A DNA stretch of 64,000 nt from the NCBI GenBank assembly GCA_964565865.1, contig CAZMGM010000003.1, forward strand, positions 6,572 through 70,571, read 5' to 3'. The notes beneath the pieces were generated by a model, which was not told the DNA's origin, did no database searches, and saw only the letters and a program-made list of their open reading frames with translations. This document shows, in pieces, positions 2 through 27,219 of the stretch. The first letter of the stretch is position 1. Every line of letters begins with the position of its first letter. The stretch is from an uncultured Acidobacteriota bacterium. Its GTDB lineage: Bacteria > Acidobacteriota > UBA6911 > RPQK01 > CBDAPI01. Both the position numbers and the translations under genes were made by a program.

Positions 2-811
2 GATCGATTCGGGATTGATGTGGAAAAAATCGAGGTCCGGCATGGAGATACCGACCAGGTGGCCTTCGGCTGGGGAACCTACGGAAGTCGGAGCGCAGCG
101 GTAGGGGGAAGTGCCCTGGCGGGCTCAGCCGACAAGATTATTGAGAAGGGCAGGAAAATTACGGCCCATCTGCTGGAAGCTGCCGAGGAGGATGTCGTCT
201 TCGAGAATGGAACGTACTCCGTCAGAGGTGTGCCCGACAAGGCGCATACGATCGAGGAGATCGCCCTTCAGGCGCATCTTGCCCACAACCTTCCCGAGGG
301 CATGGAACCAGGACTGCGGGCGACCACTTTTTATGACCCGGCCAATTTCACTTATCCTTTTGGGAGCCACATAGCGGTCGTAGAGGTCGATCCGCAAACC
401 GGGAAGGTCGACCTGATCAGCTACACCGCCGTCGACGATGTTGGGAACGTGATCAACCCGATGATTGTGGACGGACAGCTGCACGGTGGGATTGCTCACG
501 GAATCGGGCAGTGTCTTTTGGAGGAAGCCGTTTACGATGAAAATGGCCAGCTCGTCTCGGGAGAGCTTCTGGACTACGCAGTTCCCAAGGCCCACCAGCT
601 GGTCTCATACAATCTTGATCGAACGGTCACCCCTTGCCCACACAATCCTCTGGGAGTCAAAGGATGTGGGGAAGCTGGTGCCATCGCTGCACCTGCGGCC
701 GTCGCCAATGCAGTGATCGACGCCTTGAAGCCTTTCGGGATTAAGCATCTGGATATGCCTTTGACGCCGGAAAAGGTGTGGAATGCAATCCAGGCTCAGG
801 GTGGGTCCTAA
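2..811 (+). CDS. Molybdopterin-dependent hydroxylase large subunit, C-terminal part (CoxL/XdhA family; 5' end lies outside the window)
   Basis: The ORF runs in frame from the window edge with no upstream stop. The C-terminal region (…[13 protein letters not shown]…[18 protein letters not shown]…) is typical of aldehyde-oxidase/xanthine-dehydrogenase Mo-binding subunits. It is followed directly by FAD-subunit and maturation genes. Confidence 0.8.
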
Positions 812-812
812 C

Positions 813-1679
813 ATGTATCCAGCTCGTTTCGAATATCTTCGTGCAAGCAACCTGGCTGAGGCCATCGATCTGGTGGGCGCCCACCCTGGCGCCAAGTTCC
901 TGGCAGGCGGGCACAGTCTGATTCCGATGATGAAACTCCGTCTAGCTGGGGCTCCCGTGCTGATTGATATCGGCCGCTTGCCCGAGCTGAAGGGCGTAGA
1001 ACTGGACGGTGACACCCTGAGAGTTGGCGCTTTGACGACTCATTCCGAGCTGGCTTCCAGTGAGATGGTACGGAGCGCCTGTTCTCTGCTCGCGGAAGCC
1101 GCCTCCCAGATTGCTGATCCGGCGGTCCGTAACAGGGGGACAATCGGGGGGAATCTTGCCCACAGTGATCCCGGCTCGGACCTTCCTGCGGTGGTACAGG
1201 TTGTAAATGCCAGGCTGGTGGTAACTGGACCCAGCGAATCGCGGGAGGTTGAGGCAACTGATTTTTTCCTCGATCTTATGATGAGCGATTTGAAGGAGGA
1301 TGAGATTCTCACGGCAATCGAAATACCAGTTTCCGCTGGCAGCTCGGGATCCTGTTATCTCAAGTTCGAGCATCCTGCCTCGGGCTATGCAGTGTGTGGT
1401 GCTGCAGCCCAGGTTGAGCTCGCTGAGGACGGGAATTGCCGCGCCGCCAGCCTAGGATTTAATGGTGTGGCCTCCACCCCAGTCAGAATCGGATCTATCG
1501 AGCGTGCTCTTTCTGGCAGCTTTCTCGGGGACGATGAGATCGATCGCGCCGTGGATGACACTCTCTCCTTTGCCGACCCAATGGGTGATATGTACGCCTC
1601 TGCTCCCTACCGGGTGCACCTGGCCCACGTCTACGGGAAGCGGGCTCTCAAGAAAGCCAGAGACCGGGCTCGCGGCTAG
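813..1679 (+). CDS. Molybdo-hydroxylase FAD-binding medium subunit (CoxM/XdhB-like)
   Basis: Starts MYPARFEY…, a typical CoxM-type N-terminus, and carries the FAD_binding_5-like motif GGHSLIPMMKLR. The ATG at 813 overlaps the upstream stop. Confidence 0.8.
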   Translation: MYPARFEYLRASNLAEAIDLVGAHPGAKFLAGGHSLIPMMKLRLAGAPVLIDIGRLPELKGVELDGDTLRVGALTTHSELASSEMVRSACSLLAEAASQIADPAVRNRGTIGGNLAHSDPGSDLPAVVQVVNARLVVTGPSESREVEATDFFLDLMMSDLKEDEILTAIEIPVSAGSSGSCYLKFEHPASGYAVCGAAAQVELAEDGNCRAASLGFNGVASTPVRIGSIERALSGSFLGDDEIDRAVDDTLSFADPMGDMYASAPYRVHLAHVYGKRALKKARDRARG

Positions 1680-1685
1680 CAGTCC

Positions 1686-2594
1686 GTGGCGAAAGTTCTG
1701 GAATTATCGATCGAGCAGATCCAAGCAGGCCTTGAGGACAACCTTTACGTTGCTGATCGGTCCCTGAGCGTAGCTCTGTTCCTGTGTCTCCGTCTGCACA
1801 AGCCGCTGTTTCTGGAGGGCGAAGCGGGGGTCGGCAAAACGGAAGTGGCCAAGGTTCTTTCCGACCTTCTGGGACGCAGACTCATCCGCCTGCAGTGCTA
1901 CGAGGGCCTGGATATCAGCAGTGCCGTTTATGAATGGAACTACAGTCATCAAATGCTTGAGATCCGTCTTCTGGAGGCGCGGAAAGGGAGGCTCGACCCC
2001 GGTACCCCTCCCGACCTATTTGGTCGCCGGTTCCTTCTCAAGCGACCCCTGCTGGATGCTATAGATCATCAAGAAGAACAACCACCGGTTTTGCTGATCG
2101 ACGAGCTCGATCGCGCGGATGAAGAGTTCGAGGCTTTCCTGCTCGAGATCCTGTCCGATTTCCAGGTCAGCATTCCTGAGATAGGGACGATCCGAGCTAA
2201 GGATCCTCCCATCGTGGTCGTTACTTCGAACCGGACCCGCGAAATCCACGATGCCCTCAAGCGACGGTGTCTGTATCATTGGATCGACTATCCTGGATTC
2301 GAAAAGGAACTCTCGATTGTGTCTTTACGTTGCCCCGATGCTTCCGGGGCACTGGCTTCCCAGGTGGTTCGCTTCGTACAGGAACTGCGCAAGGAGGATC
2401 TCTTCAAGATTCCCGGGATTGCGGAGACCCTGGACTGGGTGAACGCATTGGTCGCCCTGAACCAGAACTCGGTTACCCAGGAGGCAACTGACGACACTCT
2501 GGGTCTGCTTCTGAAGTACCAGGACGACGTGGAGCTGGTTCGGGGTGATGGGGCCAAAAAGATTCTAGGCAAAACAGCAGCCTCTTCGAACTGA
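1686..2594 (+). CDS. MoxR-family AAA+ ATPase (CoxD-like maturation factor)
   Basis: Walker A (GEAGVGKT) and Walker B (LLIDELDRAD) motifs. The GTG start and MoxR-like architecture are typical of coxD in CODH/XDH clusters. Confidence 0.8.
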   Translation: MAKVLELSIEQIQAGLEDNLYVADRSLSVALFLCLRLHKPLFLEGEAGVGKTEVAKVLSDLLGRRLIRLQCYEGLDISSAVYEWNYSHQMLEIRLLEARKGRLDPGTPPDLFGRRFLLKRPLLDAIDHQEEQPPVLLIDELDRADEEFEAFLLEILSDFQVSIPEIGTIRAKDPPIVVVTSNRTREIHDALKRRCLYHWIDYPGFEKELSIVSLRCPDASGALASQVVRFVQELRKEDLFKIPGIAETLDWVNALVALNQNSVTQEATDDTLGLLLKYQDDVELVRGDGAKKILGKTAASSN

Positions 2595-2650
2595 GAAAGT
2601 GTTTGGCTTGCTGTCTTACCAACGGTGGGCTTTTCTTGAGGCTGACTAAC

Positions 2651-3889
2651 ATGCCCGATGCCGACAAGATTCTCGAGAATGTCATCCTCTTCTGCAGGGC
2701 GCTGAGACACAAGGGACTTGGCGTGACTACAGGGCAGGTGCTAACGGTAGTAGAGGCCCTACGCCACATCTCGCTCACTCGGCGCCGGGATGTCAGGTCA
2801 GCTTTGAGGGCGATTCTGATCAATCGAAAAACGGATCTAGATGCTTTCCATGAAGCCTTTGATAACTTTTGGAATGCCTCTTCAAGAAAGAGGGGCGCGG
2901 AACTCGGAAAACTTCTCCGGCCAACCAGCCGCCAAATGAACACCGCTTTTCTCGACCAGGCAGTCAGCCAATCAGCATCTGACGGGGAGGAAGATGAGCC
3001 TGACACCAGGCTGAGAAGTACCCGCATCCGATACAGCAACCTGGAAAAGCTGCGCCGGCACGACTTTGCCCATTTGACCGCCGCCGAGCTGGAACAGGTG
3101 AAAGAGCTGATGCGCCAGTTTTCCTGGTCCCCGCCGCTCCGTAAGACGCGGCGCAAAATAGCTGCCAGACGAGGAACGGACCTTGATTTGAGGCGTCTCT
3201 TTCGAACTAGCCTGAGGTTTGAAGGGTGGCCGCTCTCGCTGACCTGGAGATCCCGGAAGATACGCTACCGACCGCTGGTTCTGATCTGCGATGTCAGTGG
3301 CTCGATGGAGCCTTACGCACGGATCCTCCTTCAATTCTCCTATGTTCTGAGCAGGGGATGGAAGCACGTCGAGGTCTTTCTTTTCAGCACTAGGCTCACC
3401 CGGATTACTCATCAACTTCGGCATAAAGACATCGACGTGGCCCTGGATCGCGCCGTCTCCATCGCCCCTGATTGGGGCGGAGGCACCCGGATCGGAGAAG
3501 CGCTGAGAGATTTCAACTACCGCTGGTCGCGCCGGGTACTCGGCGGCGGTCCAGTTGTCTTGATCATCAGCGACGGATGGGATCGGGGAGAAACCAATCG
3601 CCTGGCTGAGGAAATGGACCGTCTGCGCAGAAGTTGCCATACTCTGATCTGGCTGAATCCGCTTTTGGGTACTCCCGGGTACCAGCCTCTCACGCTAGGG
3701 ATTGTAGCGGCTCTGCCCAGGGTGGACTTCTTCTTGCCAGCGCACAATCTCCTGAGCCTGGAACGCCTGGGTTCTATGCTACAGGGAGTGTCCCTCGCCA
3801 CGCATCCATATCCGCGACCAGGAGACGCAGTGGGGGCGTCGTGGGGTGTCCGGGTCCGGCCACCTCAACTGAGGGGGCATTCTGCATGA
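2651..3889 (+). CDS. VWA-domain protein (CoxE-like)
   Basis: MIDAS motif DVSGSM near the C-terminal VWA domain. Position after the MoxR ATPase matches the coxD-coxE pairing. Start chosen at MPDADKIL. Confidence 0.75.
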   Translation: MPDADKILENVILFCRALRHKGLGVTTGQVLTVVEALRHISLTRRRDVRSALRAILINRKTDLDAFHEAFDNFWNASSRKRGAELGKLLRPTSRQMNTAFLDQAVSQSASDGEEDEPDTRLRSTRIRYSNLEKLRRHDFAHLTAAELEQVKELMRQFSWSPPLRKTRRKIAARRGTDLDLRRLFRTSLRFEGWPLSLTWRSRKIRYRPLVLICDVSGSMEPYARILLQFSYVLSRGWKHVEVFLFSTRLTRITHQLRHKDIDVALDRAVSIAPDWGGGTRIGEALRDFNYRWSRRVLGGGPVVLIISDGWDRGETNRLAEEMDRLRRSCHTLIWLNPLLGTPGYQPLTLGIVAALPRVDFFLPAHNLLSLERLGSMLQGVSLATHPYPRPGDAVGASWGVRVRPPQLRGHSA

Positions 3890-4497
3890 GTGTGTCGGGA
3901 ATTCTGCTGGCCGCAGGCCGGTCTCTTCGGTTTGGTGACGAAGCGAAGCAGCTGCTCGATTTCGACGGCGAGCCGCTGGTTCGAAGAATCGCCCGGGCAG
4001 CTTGCCTCTCCACACTCGGGGAGGTCGTCGTAGTGACGGGCTATCGAGCTTCCGAAATGGAGGCGGCCTTAGAGGGGCTGGGGGTGAGAACTATTCTCAA
4101 CCCCCGCTATCGAGATGGTTTGAGCACTTCCATTGGGGTGGGGATCCAAAACGTAACGACCTGTGCGGGGGGCGCACTCATTATGACCGCGGATCAGCCA
4201 TTTTTGAGTACGGAAGTGATGGACCAAATCGTTTCAGCGTATGCTGGCACGGGAGCTGCCATCGTGGGCCCGGTGTTCGAGGGCCGGCACGGCTCCCCGG
4301 TGTTGTTCGACCGCAGCCTGTTCGTCGAGCTCCTGGAACTGAGGAATGATGAGGGAGGTCGACAAATCATCCAGCGGAGCCCCGGCATGCTGGAAGCAGT
4401 GGAGCTCGGAAGTGCCCTGCCTCTGACCGACATCGATACGCGGGCGGAATACGAGCGCCTGCTCGGATACACTAGTGCGGCGAGTTATAAATTCTGA
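3886..4497 (+). CDS. MobA-like nucleotidyltransferase, probably molybdenum cofactor cytidylyltransferase (MocA)
   Basis: N-terminal motif LLAAGRSLRFG of the MobA/MocA family. Overlaps the upstream stop by 4 nt (ATGA). Confidence 0.7.
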   Translation: MSVSGILLAAGRSLRFGDEAKQLLDFDGEPLVRRIARAACLSTLGEVVVVTGYRASEMEAALEGLGVRTILNPRYRDGLSTSIGVGIQNVTTCAGGALIMTADQPFLSTEVMDQIVSAYAGTGAAIVGPVFEGRHGSPVLFDRSLFVELLELRNDEGGRQIIQRSPGMLEAVELGSALPLTDIDTRAEYERLLGYTSAASYKF

Positions 4498-4681
4498 AAC
4501 CTGGCCCTCCGCCGTCAGTCGCAGAATGATCCTCACACTTTCGGCCGGGTCCTTTGGGACTGGAGACTGGGAGAGAGCTTGCCGACAGCAAGCGGAGTGA
4601 ACCAGAATCGATGATGCGTTGTTCCAGCCCCGACGAGCGGGAGAAAGAAAAGGACTCCGATTGTTGAATCTGGTCGAATCG

Positions 4682-5713
4682 ATGACCTCGGCCTGGCAGC
4701 GGGGGGAGAGGGTCTTTCTGGCGACCGTCGTCAGTGTCGAGGGTTCTGCTTATCGCCACGAGGGAGCCAAGTTACTCGTTTTTGAAGATGGGAGCTACCA
4801 GGGAATGATTTCCGGAGGCTGCCTGGAACCCGAGATTGGCGCGACTGTGTCCCGGTTCGACGTTGGGGAGCCCATATATCGACACTTCGATCTCCGCGAT
4901 GACTCCGTATTCGGACTAGGGATGGGCTGCGGGGGCATGGTGGGAGTGTTCATTGAGCCGGCTCTGGACGGACCCGTCTGGAGATCCTGGCTGCAAACCT
5001 TCGAAAGAAACAGCCCCTCAGTTAGAGCCCTTGTCTATCAATCGGACGTCGCAGACGTCGCTGTCGGGGCATTCCTGGTGATCGAGGAGAACTGCCACAG
5101 GGGATCCACGGGCGACGAAGGCCTGGACCGGGAGGTCCTGGCGCGGTCCAGGGCGTTGCTTGAGAGCGATGGGGGAGCGAGCAGAGAACTAGATTTAGAG
5201 GGTCTCCGCCTGCTGCTGGATGTTTCTCTTGCGCCTCCCCGGCTGGTGATTTTCGGAGGTGGAGATGATGCTATCCCGGTAGCGAGGCTGGCCCATATGA
5301 CTGGTTTCGGGGTGACTGTCGTGGATGCCCGCGCCAGTTTCGTCACTTCGGAGCGGTTTCCCGAATCTCGCCTAATCATTGTGCCACCAGAGCAGTACAG
5401 CGAAGTAGGTCTGCGCCCGAAGGACTTGATCATCATCATGCATCATCACCTTGCAAAGGATGCGGTGGCCCTCGGTCAGGCCCTCCAGAATAGGTGCAAA
5501 TACATTGGTTTGCTGGGACCTCCGCATCGCTTTGAAAAAGTCAAAGAGCTGCTCGAACAGGACGCCCACCCATTCGGTGCTTTCGATTTTTCCCGGATCG
5601 ATACGCCGATAGGAGTCGATATCGGCGCTCGAGGACCGGAGGAAATTGCCCTCAGCATTATGGCCAAACTGGTTTCGGTCAGGCGGGGGAGCAGCCGGCT
5701 GGATCAAGTCTGA
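4682..5713 (+). CDS. XdhC/CoxF-family molybdo-enzyme maturation protein
   Basis: XdhC_CoxI-like N-terminus (VFLATVVSVEGSAYRHEGAKL) and a C-terminal Rossmann-like region (LVIFGGGDDA…). Last gene of the maturation cluster. Confidence 0.75.
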   Translation: MTSAWQRGERVFLATVVSVEGSAYRHEGAKLLVFEDGSYQGMISGGCLEPEIGATVSRFDVGEPIYRHFDLRDDSVFGLGMGCGGMVGVFIEPALDGPVWRSWLQTFERNSPSVRALVYQSDVADVAVGAFLVIEENCHRGSTGDEGLDREVLARSRALLESDGGASRELDLEGLRLLLDVSLAPPRLVIFGGGDDAIPVARLAHMTGFGVTVVDARASFVTSERFPESRLIIVPPEQYSEVGLRPKDLIIIMHHHLAKDAVALGQALQNRCKYIGLLGPPHRFEKVKELLEQDAHPFGAFDFSRIDTPIGVDIGARGPEEIALSIMAKLVSVRRGSSRLDQV

Positions 5714-5768
5714 CCGATCTGAAGTTCCGGGTCTCGACTTTCCAGCTGCGTCGCCCGGTAGGACTGAA

Positions 5769-6191
5769 ATGAATTCCAAAGCTCTTCGTCTTCTCTGGAT
5801 TCTTCTCGTCCCGGCAATGAACTTTTCCTATTATTGGTCGTCGCTCGGGAGCTATTTTGTTTCCGAGGACTTTATTTTCCTGGTCCGGTCGCAAGACCCG
5901 TGGCAAACATTCGGGTCTCTCCAGGACAGATGGGTTCTCCCTGTGGGCCTGGTTTTCTGGAAACTTACGGTAGAGTTGTTCGGATACTCGGCTCCGGCTC
6001 ACCGTCTTTGTAATCTCCTCGTCCATTTCCTTAACGTGGCCCTTTTTTACCGGCTGTTGCGTGCGACGATCCAAGACAGGGAGGTGAGCCTTCTGGCAGT
6101 GGTCATTTTCTGTCTCTTCCTCATTCATCCCGAGGCAGTGCCAGGGCTCTCCGGGCACGGTGGTCTACCGATGGAACTAAAGCCATTTTGA
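5769..6191 (+). CDS. Hypothetical hydrophobic protein, possibly a truncated N-terminal fragment of a larger membrane glycosyltransferase-like protein
   Basis: 141-aa ORF with several hydrophobic segments (LLWILLVPAMNF…, LLAVVIFCLFLI…). No recognisable catalytic motif. It is followed by about 200 nt without a coding continuation. Confidence 0.3.
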   Translation: MNSKALRLLWILLVPAMNFSYYWSSLGSYFVSEDFIFLVRSQDPWQTFGSLQDRWVLPVGLVFWKLTVELFGYSAPAHRLCNLLVHFLNVALFYRLLRATIQDREVSLLAVVIFCLFLIHPEAVPGLSGHGGLPMELKPF

Positions 6192-9549: not shown

Positions 9550-10143
9550 TGCAGTAGGGGGGATGATGCCTCCACCAAGATTGAATCATTTTCCCTTTTT
9601 CCTGGTCAACTCTCCCACCTAGCTCGACCCCTTTGGGAGTTCCTGGCTCCCACCACCTGGCCATCTTGCCGAATTCCAACACAGTAGGCTCCACCAAAGT
9701 AGGTCGACAGAGATTTCCAGTACCTTACCTGGTAGGCGATTTACTCCAGCGCTTGTCGGGTATTTTCTCCGAAGCCTGGTACTCACTTCAGGACGCCGTC
9801 CTCAGAGTGGAGCCCACGGACGTTGCACCGCACTTTCGAGGGAAAACTCAAAATCAATGAGTTTGGAGATCACCGGAAGGAGCGAAGTTCTGATTCGGGT
9901 GATTGCCCCGCTTCCGATGACAGCTCAACTCAATGATCCTAGAGAACAAGGGTGGGGTGCTCATCGTGGGGATTGTATGTCCGGGGGCCCGTCGTGTCTT
10001 GGCCGAAGTTTTCTTCGGCCTTGTCGCTCTCGAAGTTAGGTCGGAAGAACACTAAACCTCTAACTCGTGTCCTGGTATACTCGGGCTCGGTCGCCAGGAT
10101 GAGAAATCAGTCCGGCCCATCCCTTCGCTACAAGAAGCGTGAG

Positions 10144-10220
10144 TGGTGGGCGATACTGGACTCGAACCAGTGACCTCCGCCGTGTGAAGACGGCGCTCTA
10201 ACCAGCTGAGCTAATCGCCC
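10144..10220 (-). tRNA. tRNA-Val (anticodon CAC), with encoded CCA
   Basis: Minus-strand sequence GGGCGATTAGCTCAGCTGGTTAGAGCGCCGTCTTCACACGGCGGAGGTCACTGGTTCGAGTCCAGTATCGCCCACCA folds as a cloverleaf: 7-bp acceptor, D-arm GCTC/GAGC, anticodon stem CCGTC/GGCGG, loop TTCACAC, T-loop TTCGAGT. Confidence 0.9.
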
Positions 10221-19957: not shown

Positions 19958-20233
19958 TTAGGTGTCGAGCAGATCCACCTGATCCACTACTCCCACGACC
20001 GCCGCGTCCACCGGTGTGTAAAACTCCCCCAGGACGTTCATGGCCGCCCATCCATCGAGGGTGCAGAGCACTCGGTCGCCCACGCCGGAGTCGGCTCCAT
20101 CGATGGCAAGGACCTGTTCGCCACGCTCCTCTCCTTTGGGAGTAAGAGGCTGAACGAGAAGAAGTTTCTGTCCCTCGAAACAGGAATCCTTCTTAGTAGA
20201 AAAAAGCTGATCGACTACTCTTCCGATGATCAT
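19958..20233 (-). CDS. BMC vertex protein (BMC-P, EutN/CcmL family), paralog 3
   Basis: 91 aa with the PF03319-like pattern MIIGRVVDQLFSTKKD…GQKLLLVQP…VLAIDGADSGVGDRVL…VVGVVDQVDL. 4-nt overlap with the upstream paralog. Confidence 0.85.
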   Translation of the reverse strand: MIIGRVVDQLFSTKKDSCFEGQKLLLVQPLTPKGEERGEQVLAIDGADSGVGDRVLCTLDGWAAMNVLGEFYTPVDAAVVGVVDQVDLLDT

Positions 20234-20508
20234 GTCGGGGAGCCCGGAAAGTTGGCCCTATCCAAAATTCCGACAATCGAGCAGTCGGATGGCACACGAT
20301 CCGGGTACCAGGGGAAGCTTCCCTCTTTCCCGGTTACGTAAAAAACAAGTTCCCCTGGTCCTGCCCCCACCGAGTCAAGGGCTACGCGGATGGGTCCCAC
20401 GGGATGACCTGTACGGTCGATCGGCCTGACCAGGAGGATTTTGTGGCCGGTCAGTGACGGATCCTTGATGGTAGTGACAACCGTTCCGACGATTTCGCCC
20501 AGGTTCAT
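20230..20508 (-). CDS. BMC vertex protein (BMC-P, EutN/CcmL family), paralog 2
   Basis: 92 aa, MNLGEIVGTVVTTIKDPSLTGHKILLVRP…ALDSVGAGPGELV…CSIVGILD. 4-nt overlaps on both sides. Confidence 0.85.
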   Translation of the reverse strand: MNLGEIVGTVVTTIKDPSLTGHKILLVRPIDRTGHPVGPIRVALDSVGAGPGELVFYVTGKEGSFPWYPDRVPSDCSIVGILDRANFPGSPT

Positions 20509-20792
20509 AGTTTGGACGTGGGGGTTCCATCGAAGTCGACGGCGTCGACGATTCCGACAATGGAGCAGTCCACCGGATGATCGGTCAATCCGTTGGCCAT
20601 CCGGGCTGAACTGCCTCGTACGATGATGACGGTCTCGCCTGCTCCGGCGCCGACTGTGTCGACCGCCACATGGTACCCGGAGGGATTCCCCGTCTCCGGA
20701 TCGATGGTCTTAACGATGAGTAGCTTTTTCCCCTGGAGCTTCTCGTCCTTACGGGTGGCGACTACGGTCCCGGCAACTTTACCTAGAAGCAT
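20505..20792 (-). CDS. BMC vertex protein (BMC-P, EutN/CcmL family), paralog 1
   Basis: 95 aa, MLLGKVAGTVVATRKDEKLQGKKLLIVK…AVDTVGAGAGETVIIV…CSIVGIVD. Confidence 0.85.
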   Translation of the reverse strand: MLLGKVAGTVVATRKDEKLQGKKLLIVKTIDPETGNPSGYHVAVDTVGAGAGETVIIVRGSSARMANGLTDHPVDCSIVGIVDAVDFDGTPTSKL

Positions 20793-20830
20793 GGGTGCTC
20801 AGAACCTTCTTTTCGGAATCGGGAAGTTGG

Positions 20831-21118
20831 TTATTTAGGGATGATGGGAAGACGTTCATCCAGGCTCGAATGGGGTCGCGGTATTACGTGAACGCTTACT
20901 AGCTCTCCTACCCGTCGAGCTGCGGCAGCTCCTGCGTCGGTGGCGGCTTTGACCGCGGCTACCTCTCCTCGAACGATGGCTGTCACGAGGCCGCTGCCGA
21001 TCTTTTCATAGCCAACCAGGGTAACCTTGGCAGCCTTAACCATCGCGTCGGCGGCTTCAACCATGGCAATGAGACCCTTCGTCTCTACCATTCCCAAAGC
21101 TTCCAGCGAATCGGCCAT
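20831..21118 (-). CDS. BMC hexameric shell protein (BMC-H, PduA/EutM/CcmK family)
   Basis: Canonical PF00936 sequence: [54 protein letters not shown]…VHVIPRPH. Confidence 0.9.
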
Positions 21119-21151
21119 TTCCGGTAGTGTCTCCCAGGATTCTGGACCTGC

Positions 21152-21985
21152 TTATCGGTCCCTGTTCATCTCCAGTACAACTCTCTCAACGATCTCATCG
21201 ATTTCCCGCGGAGATAACGTGAGAGGGTGTTCGCCGTGGGCAGTTACGGGACAGTCAGTCTGCCGCGAAACTGGAGCATTTATACCATACTTCCCACTGA
21301 CGTCAAAAAGTTTGTCCACAGATTCCCGAGTGAGTAAACTCTGCTTTCCAAGGATGCGTGTCAGTAAAGAGATCTTGGCAAAATGTTCGAGAATTTCCAT
21401 GCGGAAAAAGGCCTTTTGCAGATCCGATCCCATAGTGATTGCGCCGTGATTGGCAAGCAGGATTGCGTTGTGTTCGGGGACTAGATCAGTGAGGCTGTTG
21501 GCCAGTTCATCGGTGGAAGGAGTCCCGTAGGGCGCGATCGGGACACAGCCCAGAGTGAGTACAACCTCGGGCATAAGGGCTTCACGGAGTGGAAGACCGG
21601 CAACCGCGTGTGCGGTTCCGTACACGGGATGTCCGTGACAGACCCCCGTCACGTCAGGACGGCCCCGGTAGACTAGCACGTGCATTTTGATTTCACTGGA
21701 AACTCCGCGCCCTCCTTCCAGCTGGTGTCCCTCAAGGTCAGTTGTAACCAGGTCTTCAGGCTGCAGATCTCCCTTGCACAAGCCTGTCGGAGTGGCAAGC
21801 AGCCGTTCTCCCATTCGGATCGACAGGTTGCCTTCGTTGGCGCAGATCAGGTCTTTGGCATACATTCTCCGGCCGATCTCACAGATGAGTTCCCGCGCTT
21901 GCCATTCGATCATCATCAGCTCCGGGTTCCGAGCTCCCAGTTCCGGGCTGGCACTGGTCGTCACTCCCGCCATTACAGGTTCCAC
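21152..21985 (-). CDS. Class II aldolase (fuculose-/rhamnulose-phosphate aldolase-like) with a C-terminal encapsulation-peptide-like amphipathic helix
   Basis: Aldolase_II motifs: Zn-ligand histidines in VCHGHPV and the conserved LLANHGAITMG. About 40 aa past the domain end there is a linker followed by an amphipathic helix (LSPREIDEIVERVVLEM). Alternative start MM at 21913. Confidence 0.8.
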   Translation of the reverse strand: MEPVMAGVTTSASPELGARNPELMMIEWQARELICEIGRRMYAKDLICANEGNLSIRMGERLLATPTGLCKGDLQPEDLVTTDLEGHQLEGGRGVSSEIKMHVLVYRGRPDVTGVCHGHPVYGTAHAVAGLPLREALMPEVVLTLGCVPIAPYGTPSTDELANSLTDLVPEHNAILLANHGAITMGSDLQKAFFRMEILEHFAKISLLTRILGKQSLLTRESVDKLFDVSGKYGINAPVSRQTDCPVTAHGEHPLTLSPREIDEIVERVVLEMNRDR

Positions 21986-22070
21986 GTTCTACGAACCTTC
22001 AACCTGTAACTGTCAACTGTCAACCTTCAACCTTCAACTGTCAACCAGTAACCGGTAAGCCAGTCCCAGA
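21986..22070. repeat. Heptanucleotide tandem repeat (about 9 units, consensus AACYKTC), copy 1 of a dispersed family
   Basis: gaaccttc|aacctgt|aactgtc|aactgtc|aaccttc|aaccttc|aactgtc|aaccagt|aaccggt, in the divergent region between the aldolase and ruvA. Confidence 0.7.
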
Positions 22071-24982: not shown

Positions 24983-25059
<77 letters not shown>

Positions 25060-27145: not shown

Positions 27146-27219
27146 TGCGCCTGGCAGGACTCGAACCTGCGACACACGGGTTAGGAACCCGTTGCTCTAT
27201 CCTTCTGAGCTACAGGCGC
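27146..27219 (-). tRNA. tRNA-Arg (anticodon CCT)
   Basis: Minus-strand sequence GCGCCTGTAGCTCAGAAGGATAGAGCAACGGGTTCCTAACCCGTGTGTCGCAGGTTCGAGTCCTGCCAGGCGCA: perfect 7-bp acceptor, anticodon stem ACGGG/CCCGT with loop TTCCTAA. No encoded CCA. Confidence 0.85.

Follow-up and report, generated by a model that had tools for sequence, protein, structure and literature searches.

Loci of the PVM type carry the aldehyde dehydrogenase (AldDh), a PduL-type phosphotransacylase (PTAC), acetate kinase, several BMC-H and a BMC-P triplet in one operon. Their signature enzyme is the class II aldolase PvmN, whose likely chemistry is the conversion of a ketose-1-phosphate into DHAP and lactaldehyde (PMC8217296). 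In the HO type, hosted mostly by Deltaproteobacteria, the main locus encodes an AldDh with an N-terminal encapsulation peptide (EP) and three BMC-T, and a type I satellite distal from it holds an aldolase and two BMC-P without BMC-H (PMC8217296). The ACI type has been catalogued in Acidobacteria with 125 loci (Sutter, Melnicki, Schulz, Woyke and Kerfeld 2021, Nat Commun 12:3809; PMC8217296). Its core, found in Acidobacteria only, comprises a PF00596 aldolase that bears a C-terminal EP, one or more BMC-H and three adjacent BMC-P; a 2-hydroxyacid dehydrogenase and a protein of ~75 aa whose N-terminus carries an EP and whose tail is Cys-rich are common components, and the AldDh (PF00171), with a C-proximal EP, lies in most ACI genomes on a satellite locus and not in the main locus, which the catalogue takes as the one having both BMC-H and BMC-P (PMC8217296). 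ACI is described as the only BMC locus type in its genome, Solibacter-group genomes are filed under it, its aldolase is most similar to those of HO and MIC3, and the PVM, HO and MIC types likewise have BMC-P triplets and PF00596 aldolases (PMC8217296). We found no experimental observation of any ACI compartment in the literature.

In the 64 kb stretch of DNA analysed here (the window), we have identified five minus-strand genes at 19958-21985, called as ORFs and assigned with Pfam; their products are a class II aldolase, one BMC-H and three BMC-P. They probably represent the main locus, carrying the shell genes, of a BMC of the ACI type in a marine Acidobacteriota lineage, cut to its five-gene core. 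Its features are the following:

21152-21985, minus strand: aldolase ORF, 277 aa, with GTG at 21985; Pfam PF00596 (Aldolase_II), 5e-44
21161-21211, minus strand: encapsulation-peptide-like amphipathic helix of the aldolase, residues 259-275, REIDEIVERVVLEMNRD
21212-21286, minus strand: aldolase linker before the helix, residues 234-258, poorly conserved
20831-21118, minus strand: BMC-H, 95 aa; PF00936 (BMC), 1.7e-29
20505-20792, minus strand: BMC-P paralogue 1 (P1), 95 aa; PF03319 (EutN_CcmL), 4e-30
20230-20508, minus strand: BMC-P paralogue 2 (P2), 92 aa; PF03319, 1.5e-23; 4-nt overlap with P1
19958-20233, minus strand: BMC-P paralogue 3 (P3), 91 aa; PF03319, 4.6e-22; 4-nt overlap with P2
21986-22088, no strand: divergent spacer between ruvA and the aldolase, presumed promoter region; its membership in the system is uncertain

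Along the operon the genes are separated by 33 nt, 38 nt and two 4-nt overlaps, an operon-like packing. The flanking genes are divergent ruvA/ruvB and, at the opposite end, purS-Q-L-F-M-N. The preliminary description of this DNA had claimed just such a set, five co-directional minus-strand genes of these identities flanked by ruvAB and purSQLFMN; the ORFs lie exactly at the coordinates it gave, Pfam agrees and both flanks are present. The composition that it proposed, one BMC-H and three BMC-P, is supported by one PF00936 and three PF03319 matches, and the BMC assignment, which it had made dependent on such HMM matches, holds at 1.7e-29 for PF00936 and 4e-30 to 4.6e-22 for PF03319, the Pfam scores of all five proteins far exceeding the gathering scores. 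A consensus scan of the minus strand gave neither a sigma-70-like promoter nor a terminator, and the Rfam families found in the window are three tRNAs and no other, none of which delimits the operon. The ruvA/aldolase spacer contains a heptamer tandem array at 21994-22054 (TRF; period 7, 7.6 copies), similar to one in the related locus L007 (aldolase 89% identical) and found in none of the more distant relatives.

The BMC-H, judged by its sequence, is a PduA/EutM-type hexamer shell protein and the only facet protein of the locus. It scores 140.8 bits with the EutM NCBIfam model, above the 133-bit cut-off, the motifs K28, G41-S42-G43 and P80-R81-P82-H83 can be read from its sequence, among natural solved chains it comes closest to EutM, PduA and HO-5815, and with the BMC-H of other Acidobacteriota loci it shares 73-94% identity. 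Identities among the BMC-P are 50% for P1/P2, 27.5% for P2/P3 and 36% for P1/P3. The best solved match of P1 is the BMC-P of the HO shell (5V74), P2 also best matches an HO BMC-P, and P1, P2 and P3 each best match the BMC-P at the same position in related loci (in the case of P1, in nearly all).

The class II (zinc, DHAP-type) aldolase is presumed to be the signature cargo enzyme. Its true start is probably not the GTG at 21985 but M24 or M25 (ATG at 21916 or 21913, giving 254 or 253 aa); 6 nt ahead of the ATG at 21916 there is a GGAG, homologues are mostly ~250-260 aa long, public gene calls start later than the 277-aa ORF, and residues 1-20 have a pLDDT of 55-58 in the AF2 model. The enzyme has the fold and family of FucA (PDB 1FUA) and of the YgbL/OtnC-like 'Aldolase' 6VOQ/6VOP, with ~30% identity, also to E. 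coli FucA. The zinc, phosphate and catalytic Glu residues of FucA are retained: the equivalents of N29, T43, G44, S71, S72 and E73 are kept, as are those of H92, H94 and H155, and E98, H117, H119 and H180 of the aldolase are invariant among 42 homologues. Unlike in FucA, Tyr113 is not conserved, M138 standing at its place, and the protein carries an extra C-terminal linker and helix of ~45 residues. It also differs from the FucA-type entries in missing every NCBIfam equivalog cut-off by a wide margin, the best match reaching 128 bits against a cut-off of 250. As Tyr113 is not conserved and no NCBIfam equivalog is reached, any assignment of a substrate is tentative.

In the AF2 model, residues 259-275 form an isolated helix beyond the low-confidence linker, and this segment has the highest hydrophobic moment of the protein (0.65). 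The aldolase family keeps the motif LTLSRxELExLIExAV, whereas neither the length nor the sequence of the linker is constant. An EP tag had been claimed for the aldolase in the preliminary description, at an end left unspecified; an EP-like helix is indeed found, it is C-terminal, and it fits the "C-terminal EP" described for the ACI aldolase (PMC8217296). Nonetheless, the helix may have a role other than encapsulation, since it persists in 17 of the 18 checked loci with no shell gene within 10 kb.

The claim that metabolosome core enzymes are missing nearby was likewise sustained by Pfam scans and tblastn of the 64 kb window and by inspection of the 10 kb beyond it, all negative. Among window ORFs of at least 150 aa, Pfam detected no PF00171, PF06130, Pta, AckA, Fe-ADH, 2-Hacid_dh or further BMC domain, and tblastn of the window with AldDh, PduL, PduS, the ACI hydroxyacid dehydrogenase and two ACI small proteins returned noise only. 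The 10 kb past its right end contain the his operon and similar genes, with no AldDh, PduL/Pta, AckA or 2-hydroxyacid dehydrogenase, and BMC-T is absent from both intervals. The ~75-aa Cys-rich EP protein gave no match at E <= 10 in a six-frame translation of the window searched with an HMM of 16 canonical-locus proteins. The neighbourhood covered for core enzymes is thus ~74 kb, the contig of the closest relative being 4.95 Mb. The absence of a nearby AldDh is expected, because the ACI type is reported to have its AldDh on a distant satellite.

We then compared the locus with the best 80 aldolase loci among 185,579 GTDB species genomes. Of these, 78 come from Acidobacteriota MAGs, with Acidobacteriota, Vicinamibacterales, Bryobacterales, Terriglobia and Acidiferrales in their record titles, and two are labelled Eisenbacteria. 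The closest ones (67-70% identity) belong to "Acidobacteriota bacterium" MAGs and have the same ruv/pur synteny; it is from such relatives that we place the window itself in the Acidobacteriota. The present aldolase lineage is 43-53% identical to other ACI aldolases and ~50% to the canonical ones. The order aldolase-H-P1-P2-P3 is kept in ~60 of the 80 loci, and between the H-P1-P2-P3 genes and those of canonical ACI loci the orthology is one-to-one, with conserved order. Canonical Vicinamibacterales loci add a 2-hydroxyacid dehydrogenase (PF00389/PF02826) and a protein of ~75 aa that has its EP at the N-terminus and ends in a Cys-rich tail; as these are the catalogue's hydroxyacid dehydrogenase and small EP protein, the relatives are ACI loci. 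An intermediate arrangement is seen in locus L027, where ruvBA, aldolase-H-P-P, a hydroxyacid dehydrogenase and purS follow one another. The hydroxyacid dehydrogenase of L027 is of a generic GyaR/glyoxylate-reductase type, ~55% identical to homologues in many phyla.

The hydroxyacid dehydrogenase is adjacent in 12 of 44 complete cassette loci and in no Bryobacterales locus; from this count, and because Solibacter-group genomes are catalogued as ACI, we read it as a common ACI component rather than a universal one. The small Cys-rich EP protein is found in 15 of the 44, and 23, the present locus included, are without both. The bare five-gene cassette is kept in several orders. The small EP/Cys protein might be homologous to the ~50-aa domain that follows the EP in the ACI AldDh; the best 120 of at least 7,568 matches to its profile are all free-standing (~70-110 aa), with no AldDh fusion among them, which speaks neither for nor against such homology. 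A BMC-type AldDh lies within 10 kb of none of the Acidobacteriota loci surveyed; motif and phmmer searches of the surveyed loci for the ACI AldDh yielded just two enzymes, an ordinary ALDH (L015) and an AldDh of SPU/MIC7-like kind (L072). In L072, labelled Eisenbacteria, a related aldolase belongs to a full locus that also encodes PduL, AldDh, PduS and probably a BMC-T. As for the genomic surroundings, linkage of the aldolase to ruvAB is met with repeatedly in the phylum: the two adjoin in 11 of the 44 cassette loci and, where adjacent shell genes are lacking, in 14 of 19. Canonical ACI loci also sit among housekeeping genes (glmM, pdxJ, nth, queE, queC); for this type the housekeeping context is not the unusual one that it had been taken for.

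With respect to a relative of 89% aldolase identity, dN/dS is 0.03-0.13 at saturated dS (>1), the single values being 0.025 for BMC-H, 0.125 for P1, 0.115 for P2 and 0.044 for P3, in the same range as for the flanking ruv and pur genes. The operon genes are under purifying selection. Identical synteny is present on the 4.95 Mb contig of the relative (aldolase 89% identical; ENA ERZ28763718 ctg125605) and on six metagenome contigs of the same organism, and inheritance at the ruvAB/pur site is stable and vertical. A recent horizontal insertion was considered and rejected, with the GC content of the operon equal to that of its flanks and the synteny conserved at dS >1.

The locus resembles the ACI type in its Acidobacteriota host, in its PF00596 aldolase with a C-terminal EP, in a BMC-H with the standard K, GSG and PRPH motifs, in three adjacent divergent BMC-P, in a main locus without AldDh or PTAC and in the gene order of canonical Vicinamibacterales loci. 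It differs from canonical ACI loci in having no 2-hydroxyacid dehydrogenase in the main locus, no ~75-aa EP/Cys protein and no ~90-aa upstream protein, in an aldolase that is ~50% identical, and in its site between ruvAB and purSQLFMN. A class II aldolase as signature enzyme recalls the PVM and PVM-like types of Planctomycetes and Verrucomicrobia, but the window is without the PVM core enzymes and the relatives of the aldolase are Acidobacteriota, not PVC bacteria. Assignment to a PVM, PVM-like or SPU metabolosome was rejected, there being no PF00171, PF06130, PF01791 or PF02502 in the window, the last two being the SPU DeoC/RpiB families. PVM, PVM-like and SPU, to which the preliminary description had turned for comparison, serve badly as comparators: the aldolase relatives, both in named sources and in the best 80 loci, are nearly all Acidobacteriota, and the shell genes are orthologous to those of ACI. 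Likeness to HO (Haliangium ochraceum) is seen in the BMC-P triplet, in P1 and P2, which best match HO BMC-P, and in the BMC-H, which is close to HO-5815, whereas the HO main locus has AldDh and BMC-T and the HO aldolase satellite lacks BMC-H. The HO type I aldolase satellite was also rejected, as the locus has BMC-H and three BMC-P and belongs to an Acidobacteriota lineage.

That a shell assembles, that the aldolase is encapsulated, what its substrate is and that a distant AldDh partner exists are all inferred. In such a scheme, the single BMC-H would tile the facets and the three divergent BMC-P would cap the vertices of a small polyhedral shell, into the lumen of which the C-terminal amphipathic helix would draw the zinc-dependent class II aldolase. 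Its substrate may be a phosphorylated ketose similar to fuculose-1-P or rhamnulose-1-P, which the enzyme would cleave to give DHAP and a short reactive aldehyde, and the shell would retain this aldehyde until an EP-tagged AldDh, encoded at a distant locus, oxidises it. The AldDh satellite is assumed for the present genome from the literature (PMC8217296).

Perhaps no such partner exists. The ACI organelle may have been stripped to shell and aldolase, with no AldDh anywhere in the genome, and might, for example, run in the condensation direction or buffer a toxic aldehyde that has another way out. AldDh, PTAC, alcohol dehydrogenase and hydroxyacid dehydrogenase are all absent within ~74 kb, the bare cassette recurs in 23 of 44 complete loci, and strong purifying selection acts on the cassette as a unit. 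However, the catalogue reports an EP-bearing satellite AldDh in most ACI genomes (PMC8217296), and an AldDh missing from ~74 kb, where the contig of the closest relative spans 4.95 Mb, is what the ACI type itself predicts; we regard an aldolase-only compartment as unlikely. Loss taken further, to a decaying or non-functional ACI remnant deprived of its partner enzymes, would agree with the missing hydroxyacid dehydrogenase and small EP protein that canonical loci, and L027, possess. Yet the five ORFs are intact, their dN/dS of 0.03-0.13 is that of the ruv/pur neighbours, the catalytic residues and the EP are conserved and the bare cassette is maintained in several orders, which leaves decay hardly credible.

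It is also conceivable that the genes are accessory copies, a satellite of a larger PVM-, SPU- or HO-like metabolosome elsewhere in the genome. HO type I genomes do carry a satellite of aldolase and two BMC-P (PMC8217296), BMC-P triplets and PF00596 aldolases are shared by the PVM, HO and MIC types, and L072 shows a related aldolase within a full locus with PduL, AldDh, PduS and likely BMC-T. On the other hand, the HO satellite has no BMC-H and HO hosts are mostly Deltaproteobacteria (PMC8217296), the shell genes are orthologous to ACI main-locus genes and not to PVM or SPU types, and core enzymes occur in none of the ~60 related Acidobacteriota cassette loci. BMC-H and BMC-P are both present, and a locus with both counts as a main one in the catalogue (PMC8217296); we hold the satellite explanation to be very improbable. 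The preliminary description had offered either a satellite or an uncharacterised aldolase-centred compartment. The satellite is very improbable, and the compartment is not an uncatalogued one, its type probably being ACI; that it is experimentally uncharacterised holds.

The odd-looking locus is thus an ordinary, slimmed-down member of the known ACI kind and overturns nothing known. The survey shows that only five genes are invariant across the ACI type, namely the EP-tagged aldolase, one BMC-H and three BMC-P; in about half of the loci, hydroxyacid dehydrogenase and small Cys-rich protein are either accessory or not linked. With 125 catalogued loci, ACI ranks among the larger BMC types, and the Acidobacteriota are a phylum abundant in soils and, as seen here, found in marine metagenomes too. 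If the aldolase-only reading were true, no natural catabolic BMC would be known that is simpler than this class II aldolase nanocompartment of one hexamer and three pentamers, and its shell, put to a non-metabolosome use, would represent a new functional kind. For the ACI organelle, the invariant five genes narrow what its reconstitution needs, and a four-gene shell with one targeting peptide makes a compact candidate minimal system.

The five minus-strand genes at 19958-21985 form a reduced member of the Acidobacteria (ACI) type of bacterial microcompartment (BMC) locus, a catalogued type of 125 loci confined to Acidobacteria (Sutter et al. 2021, PMC8217296). The ORFs were found at exactly the positions claimed in the preliminary description, and all lie far over the curated Pfam cut-offs: the aldolase matches Aldolase_II (5e-44), the hexamer BMC (1.7e-29) and the three BMC-P paralogues P1, P2 and P3 EutN_CcmL (4e-30, 1.5e-23 and 4.6e-22). 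Their packing is operon-like: the first two gaps measure 33 and 38 nt, the next two junctions are 4-nt ATGA overlaps, and GC content does not change along the cassette. Divergent ruvA and ruvB lie upstream and purS-Q-L-F-M-N lies 148 nt downstream, with no terminator or Rfam element predicted in that gap. The spacer between ruvA and the aldolase gene carries a heptamer tandem array of ~7.6 copies (21994-22054), reading GTTGAAG/GTTGACA on the minus strand, several copies with TTGACA. A similar array and a second one, AGAACCT x5, occur in L007, a related locus with 89% aldolase identity (about 9860-9915 and 9975-10010), and the heptamer array is absent from relatives at 67-70% identity; the array may regulate the divergent ruvA/aldolase promoters.

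The assignment to ACI comes from a survey in which one genome per GTDB species was scanned with the aldolase, giving 587 relatives. The best 80 of these 587 loci were all from Acidobacteriota MAGs, except two labelled Eisenbacteria, and the labelled closest aldolases in a collection of 5.8 billion proteins were Acidobacteriota or Vicinamibacterales. The order aldolase-H-P-P-P is common to about 60 of the best 80 loci, where each BMC-P has as best match the window paralogue at the equivalent position. ORFs were called in the 80 loci and clustering of the neighbouring ORFs gave three architectures. The Vicinamibacterales architecture, which is the catalogue's canonical ACI, adds a ~90-aa protein upstream and, downstream, a ~75-aa protein (N-terminal EP-like helix and CxIEPxVxCxxCGYCxSxGH tail) and a PF00389/PF02826 dehydrogenase. 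Bare cassettes with none of those additions account for 23 of 44 complete loci; the window belongs here, as do the closely related L007-L011 and the Bryobacterales loci. The third architecture, in Terriglobia and Acidiferrales, is usually gdh-aldolase then ruvA-ruvB and often lacks shell genes within 10 kb. An intermediate linking the first two was seen in locus L027 (9525-12567: ruvB-ruvA, aldolase-H-P-P, 2-hydroxyacid dehydrogenase, purS), which suggests that in the window lineage the dehydrogenase once lay between the BMC-P genes and purS and has been lost or moved elsewhere.

The housekeeping surroundings, previously regarded as unusual, are in fact normal for the type. Canonical loci lie among glmM, pdxJ, nth, PPIase, queE and queC. 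The aldolase has ruvAB at most 5 kb away in 11/44 cassette loci and in 14/19 loci without adjacent shell genes, so this linkage recurs across the phylum. The preliminary description was right about gene content and is borne out in part in its interpretation: its choice between a satellite of a main locus and an uncharacterised aldolase-centred compartment gives way to ACI orthology with the same gene order.

The cassette appears to be functional, judging from its conservation and sequence evolution. Six metagenome contigs, some of marine origin, carry the same organism's cassette, and synteny is identical in the relative whose aldolase is 89% identical, where it was seen on a 4.95 Mb contig. 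Between the two, dS is >1, and dN/dS is 0.05 for the aldolase, 0.03 for H, 0.13 for P1, 0.12 for P2 and 0.04 for P3, against 0.14, 0.04, 0.06 and 0.09 for the flanking ruvA, ruvB, purS and purQ. These values and the conserved synteny at such divergence indicate a constrained, vertically inherited cassette and rule out a relic or a recent insertion.

As for the shell, the hexamer is over the EutM equivalog cut-off in NCBIfam, shows the canonical motifs (K28, the G41-S42-G43 pore and PRPH), and has EutM, PduA and HO-5815 as closest natural solved structures. The HO shell pentamer is the best match of both P1 and P2, P3 is more divergent, and the three share 27-50% pairwise identity. No BMC-T is present in the locus.

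The aldolase reached no NCBIfam aldolase equivalog (top match 128 bits, cut-off 250). Both the GTG-start ORF (21985) and the 273-aa public gene call are probably over-extended (21913-21985). The true start is probably M24 or M25 (21916/21913): there is a GGAG 6 nt ahead of the ATG at 21916, homologues begin near these residues and mostly have about 250-260 aa, and the model shows disorder over residues 1-20. E98, H117, H119 and H180 are invariant among 42 aligned homologues. Against E. coli FucA, whose known positions check out, N29, T43, G44, S71, S72, E73, H92, H94 and H155 are retained and Tyr113 is replaced by Met138, at 30% overall identity. The nearest PDB entries are 6VOQ and 6VOP, both named 'Aldolase', then those of FucA. 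These residues and neighbours mark the protein as a class II enzyme that binds zinc and phosphate, in a subfamily of its own.

In the AlphaFold2 model (pLDDT 88) the catalytic domain (residues 21-233) is followed by a linker of low confidence (234-258), then by an isolated helix (259-275) with the top hydrophobic moment within the protein. Its motif LTLSRxELExLIExAV is conserved family-wide and the linker is variable. A conserved amphipathic helix after a variable linker is the usual hallmark of an encapsulation peptide (EP), and the helix is EP-like. As a caveat to this reading, the same helix is kept by 17 of the 18 checked loci without a shell gene within 10 kb; either their shell genes are unlinked or the helix serves a purpose that needs no shell. 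These loci, from Terriglobia, Acidiferrales and other Acidobacteriota, usually arranged gdh-aldolase ... ruvA-ruvB, are:

L013, L014, L016, L018-L021, L025, L031, L035: ACI-clade aldolase loci without a BMC shell gene within 10 kb
L038, L041, L045, L046, L053, L075, L076, L080: further shell-less aldolase loci

The absence of metabolosome core enzymes near the cassette was borne out. Pfam scans of ORFs of at least 150 aa across the 64 kb gave only housekeeping functions (CoxMLS-type molybdoenzyme with accessory genes, ROK kinase, Der, fab genes, ribD, thiE, accBC, rpsB-tsf-pyrH-frr, carAB, 2-oxoacid:ferredoxin oxidoreductase, FadB-like protein). Searches of the window by tblastn with aldehyde dehydrogenase (AldDh), PduL, PduS, the ACI hydroxyacid dehydrogenase and two ACI small proteins returned noise, and an HMM of the small Cys-rich ACI protein had no match. 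The his operon lies in the 10 kb past the right end. The genes at 20-6191 (end of a CoxL-type molybdopterin subunit, CoxM-like FAD subunit, CoxD-like AAA ATPase, CoxE with VWA domain, MobA-like transferase, XdhC) are an aerobic CO-dehydrogenase or xanthine-dehydrogenase-family cluster. Three tRNAs were the only Rfam families in the window:

10144-10220, tRNA Val-CAC
24983-25059, tRNA Pro-CGG
27146-27219, tRNA Arg-CCT

We infer that one hexamer type and three pentamers would form a small shell, which may enclose the aldolase through its C-terminal helix; the enzyme would split a ketose phosphate into DHAP and a reactive aldehyde, to be oxidised by an EP-bearing AldDh encoded elsewhere. Across the surveyed Acidobacteriota loci, no BMC-type AldDh turned up within 10 kb, in agreement with the catalogue. 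Perhaps the compartment contains the aldolase only, but we hold this to be improbable. A complete metabolosome was observed at L072:4012-10816, in a MAG labelled Candidatus Eisenbacteria, with PduL, two BMC-H, BMC-P, AldDh (N-terminal EP), PduS-like Fe-S protein, a likely BMC-T, two BMC-P and an aldolase that shares 49% identity with that of the window and has a C-terminal helix of another sequence; this locus resembles the catalogue's MIC7.

The ~75-aa ACI protein (e.g. L074:12060-12287, L069:12113-12331), with its EP-like helix and HASH preceding the cysteine-rich tail, has no Pfam match and belongs to a family of at least 7,568 proteins in a large database, the top matches almost all of 70-81 aa; it probably binds metal in the lumen. 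The ACI 'hydroxyacid dehydrogenase' (L027:11599-12567 and homologues) is of the ordinary glyoxylate-reductase/D-glycerate-dehydrogenase (GyaR) type, about 55% identical in L027 to enzymes from many phyla, a hint that the chemistry of canonical loci involves glycolate/glyoxylate or glycerate. For the type as a whole, the survey defines an invariant five-gene ACI core and reveals its association with ruvAB as a recurrent one in Acidobacteriota.
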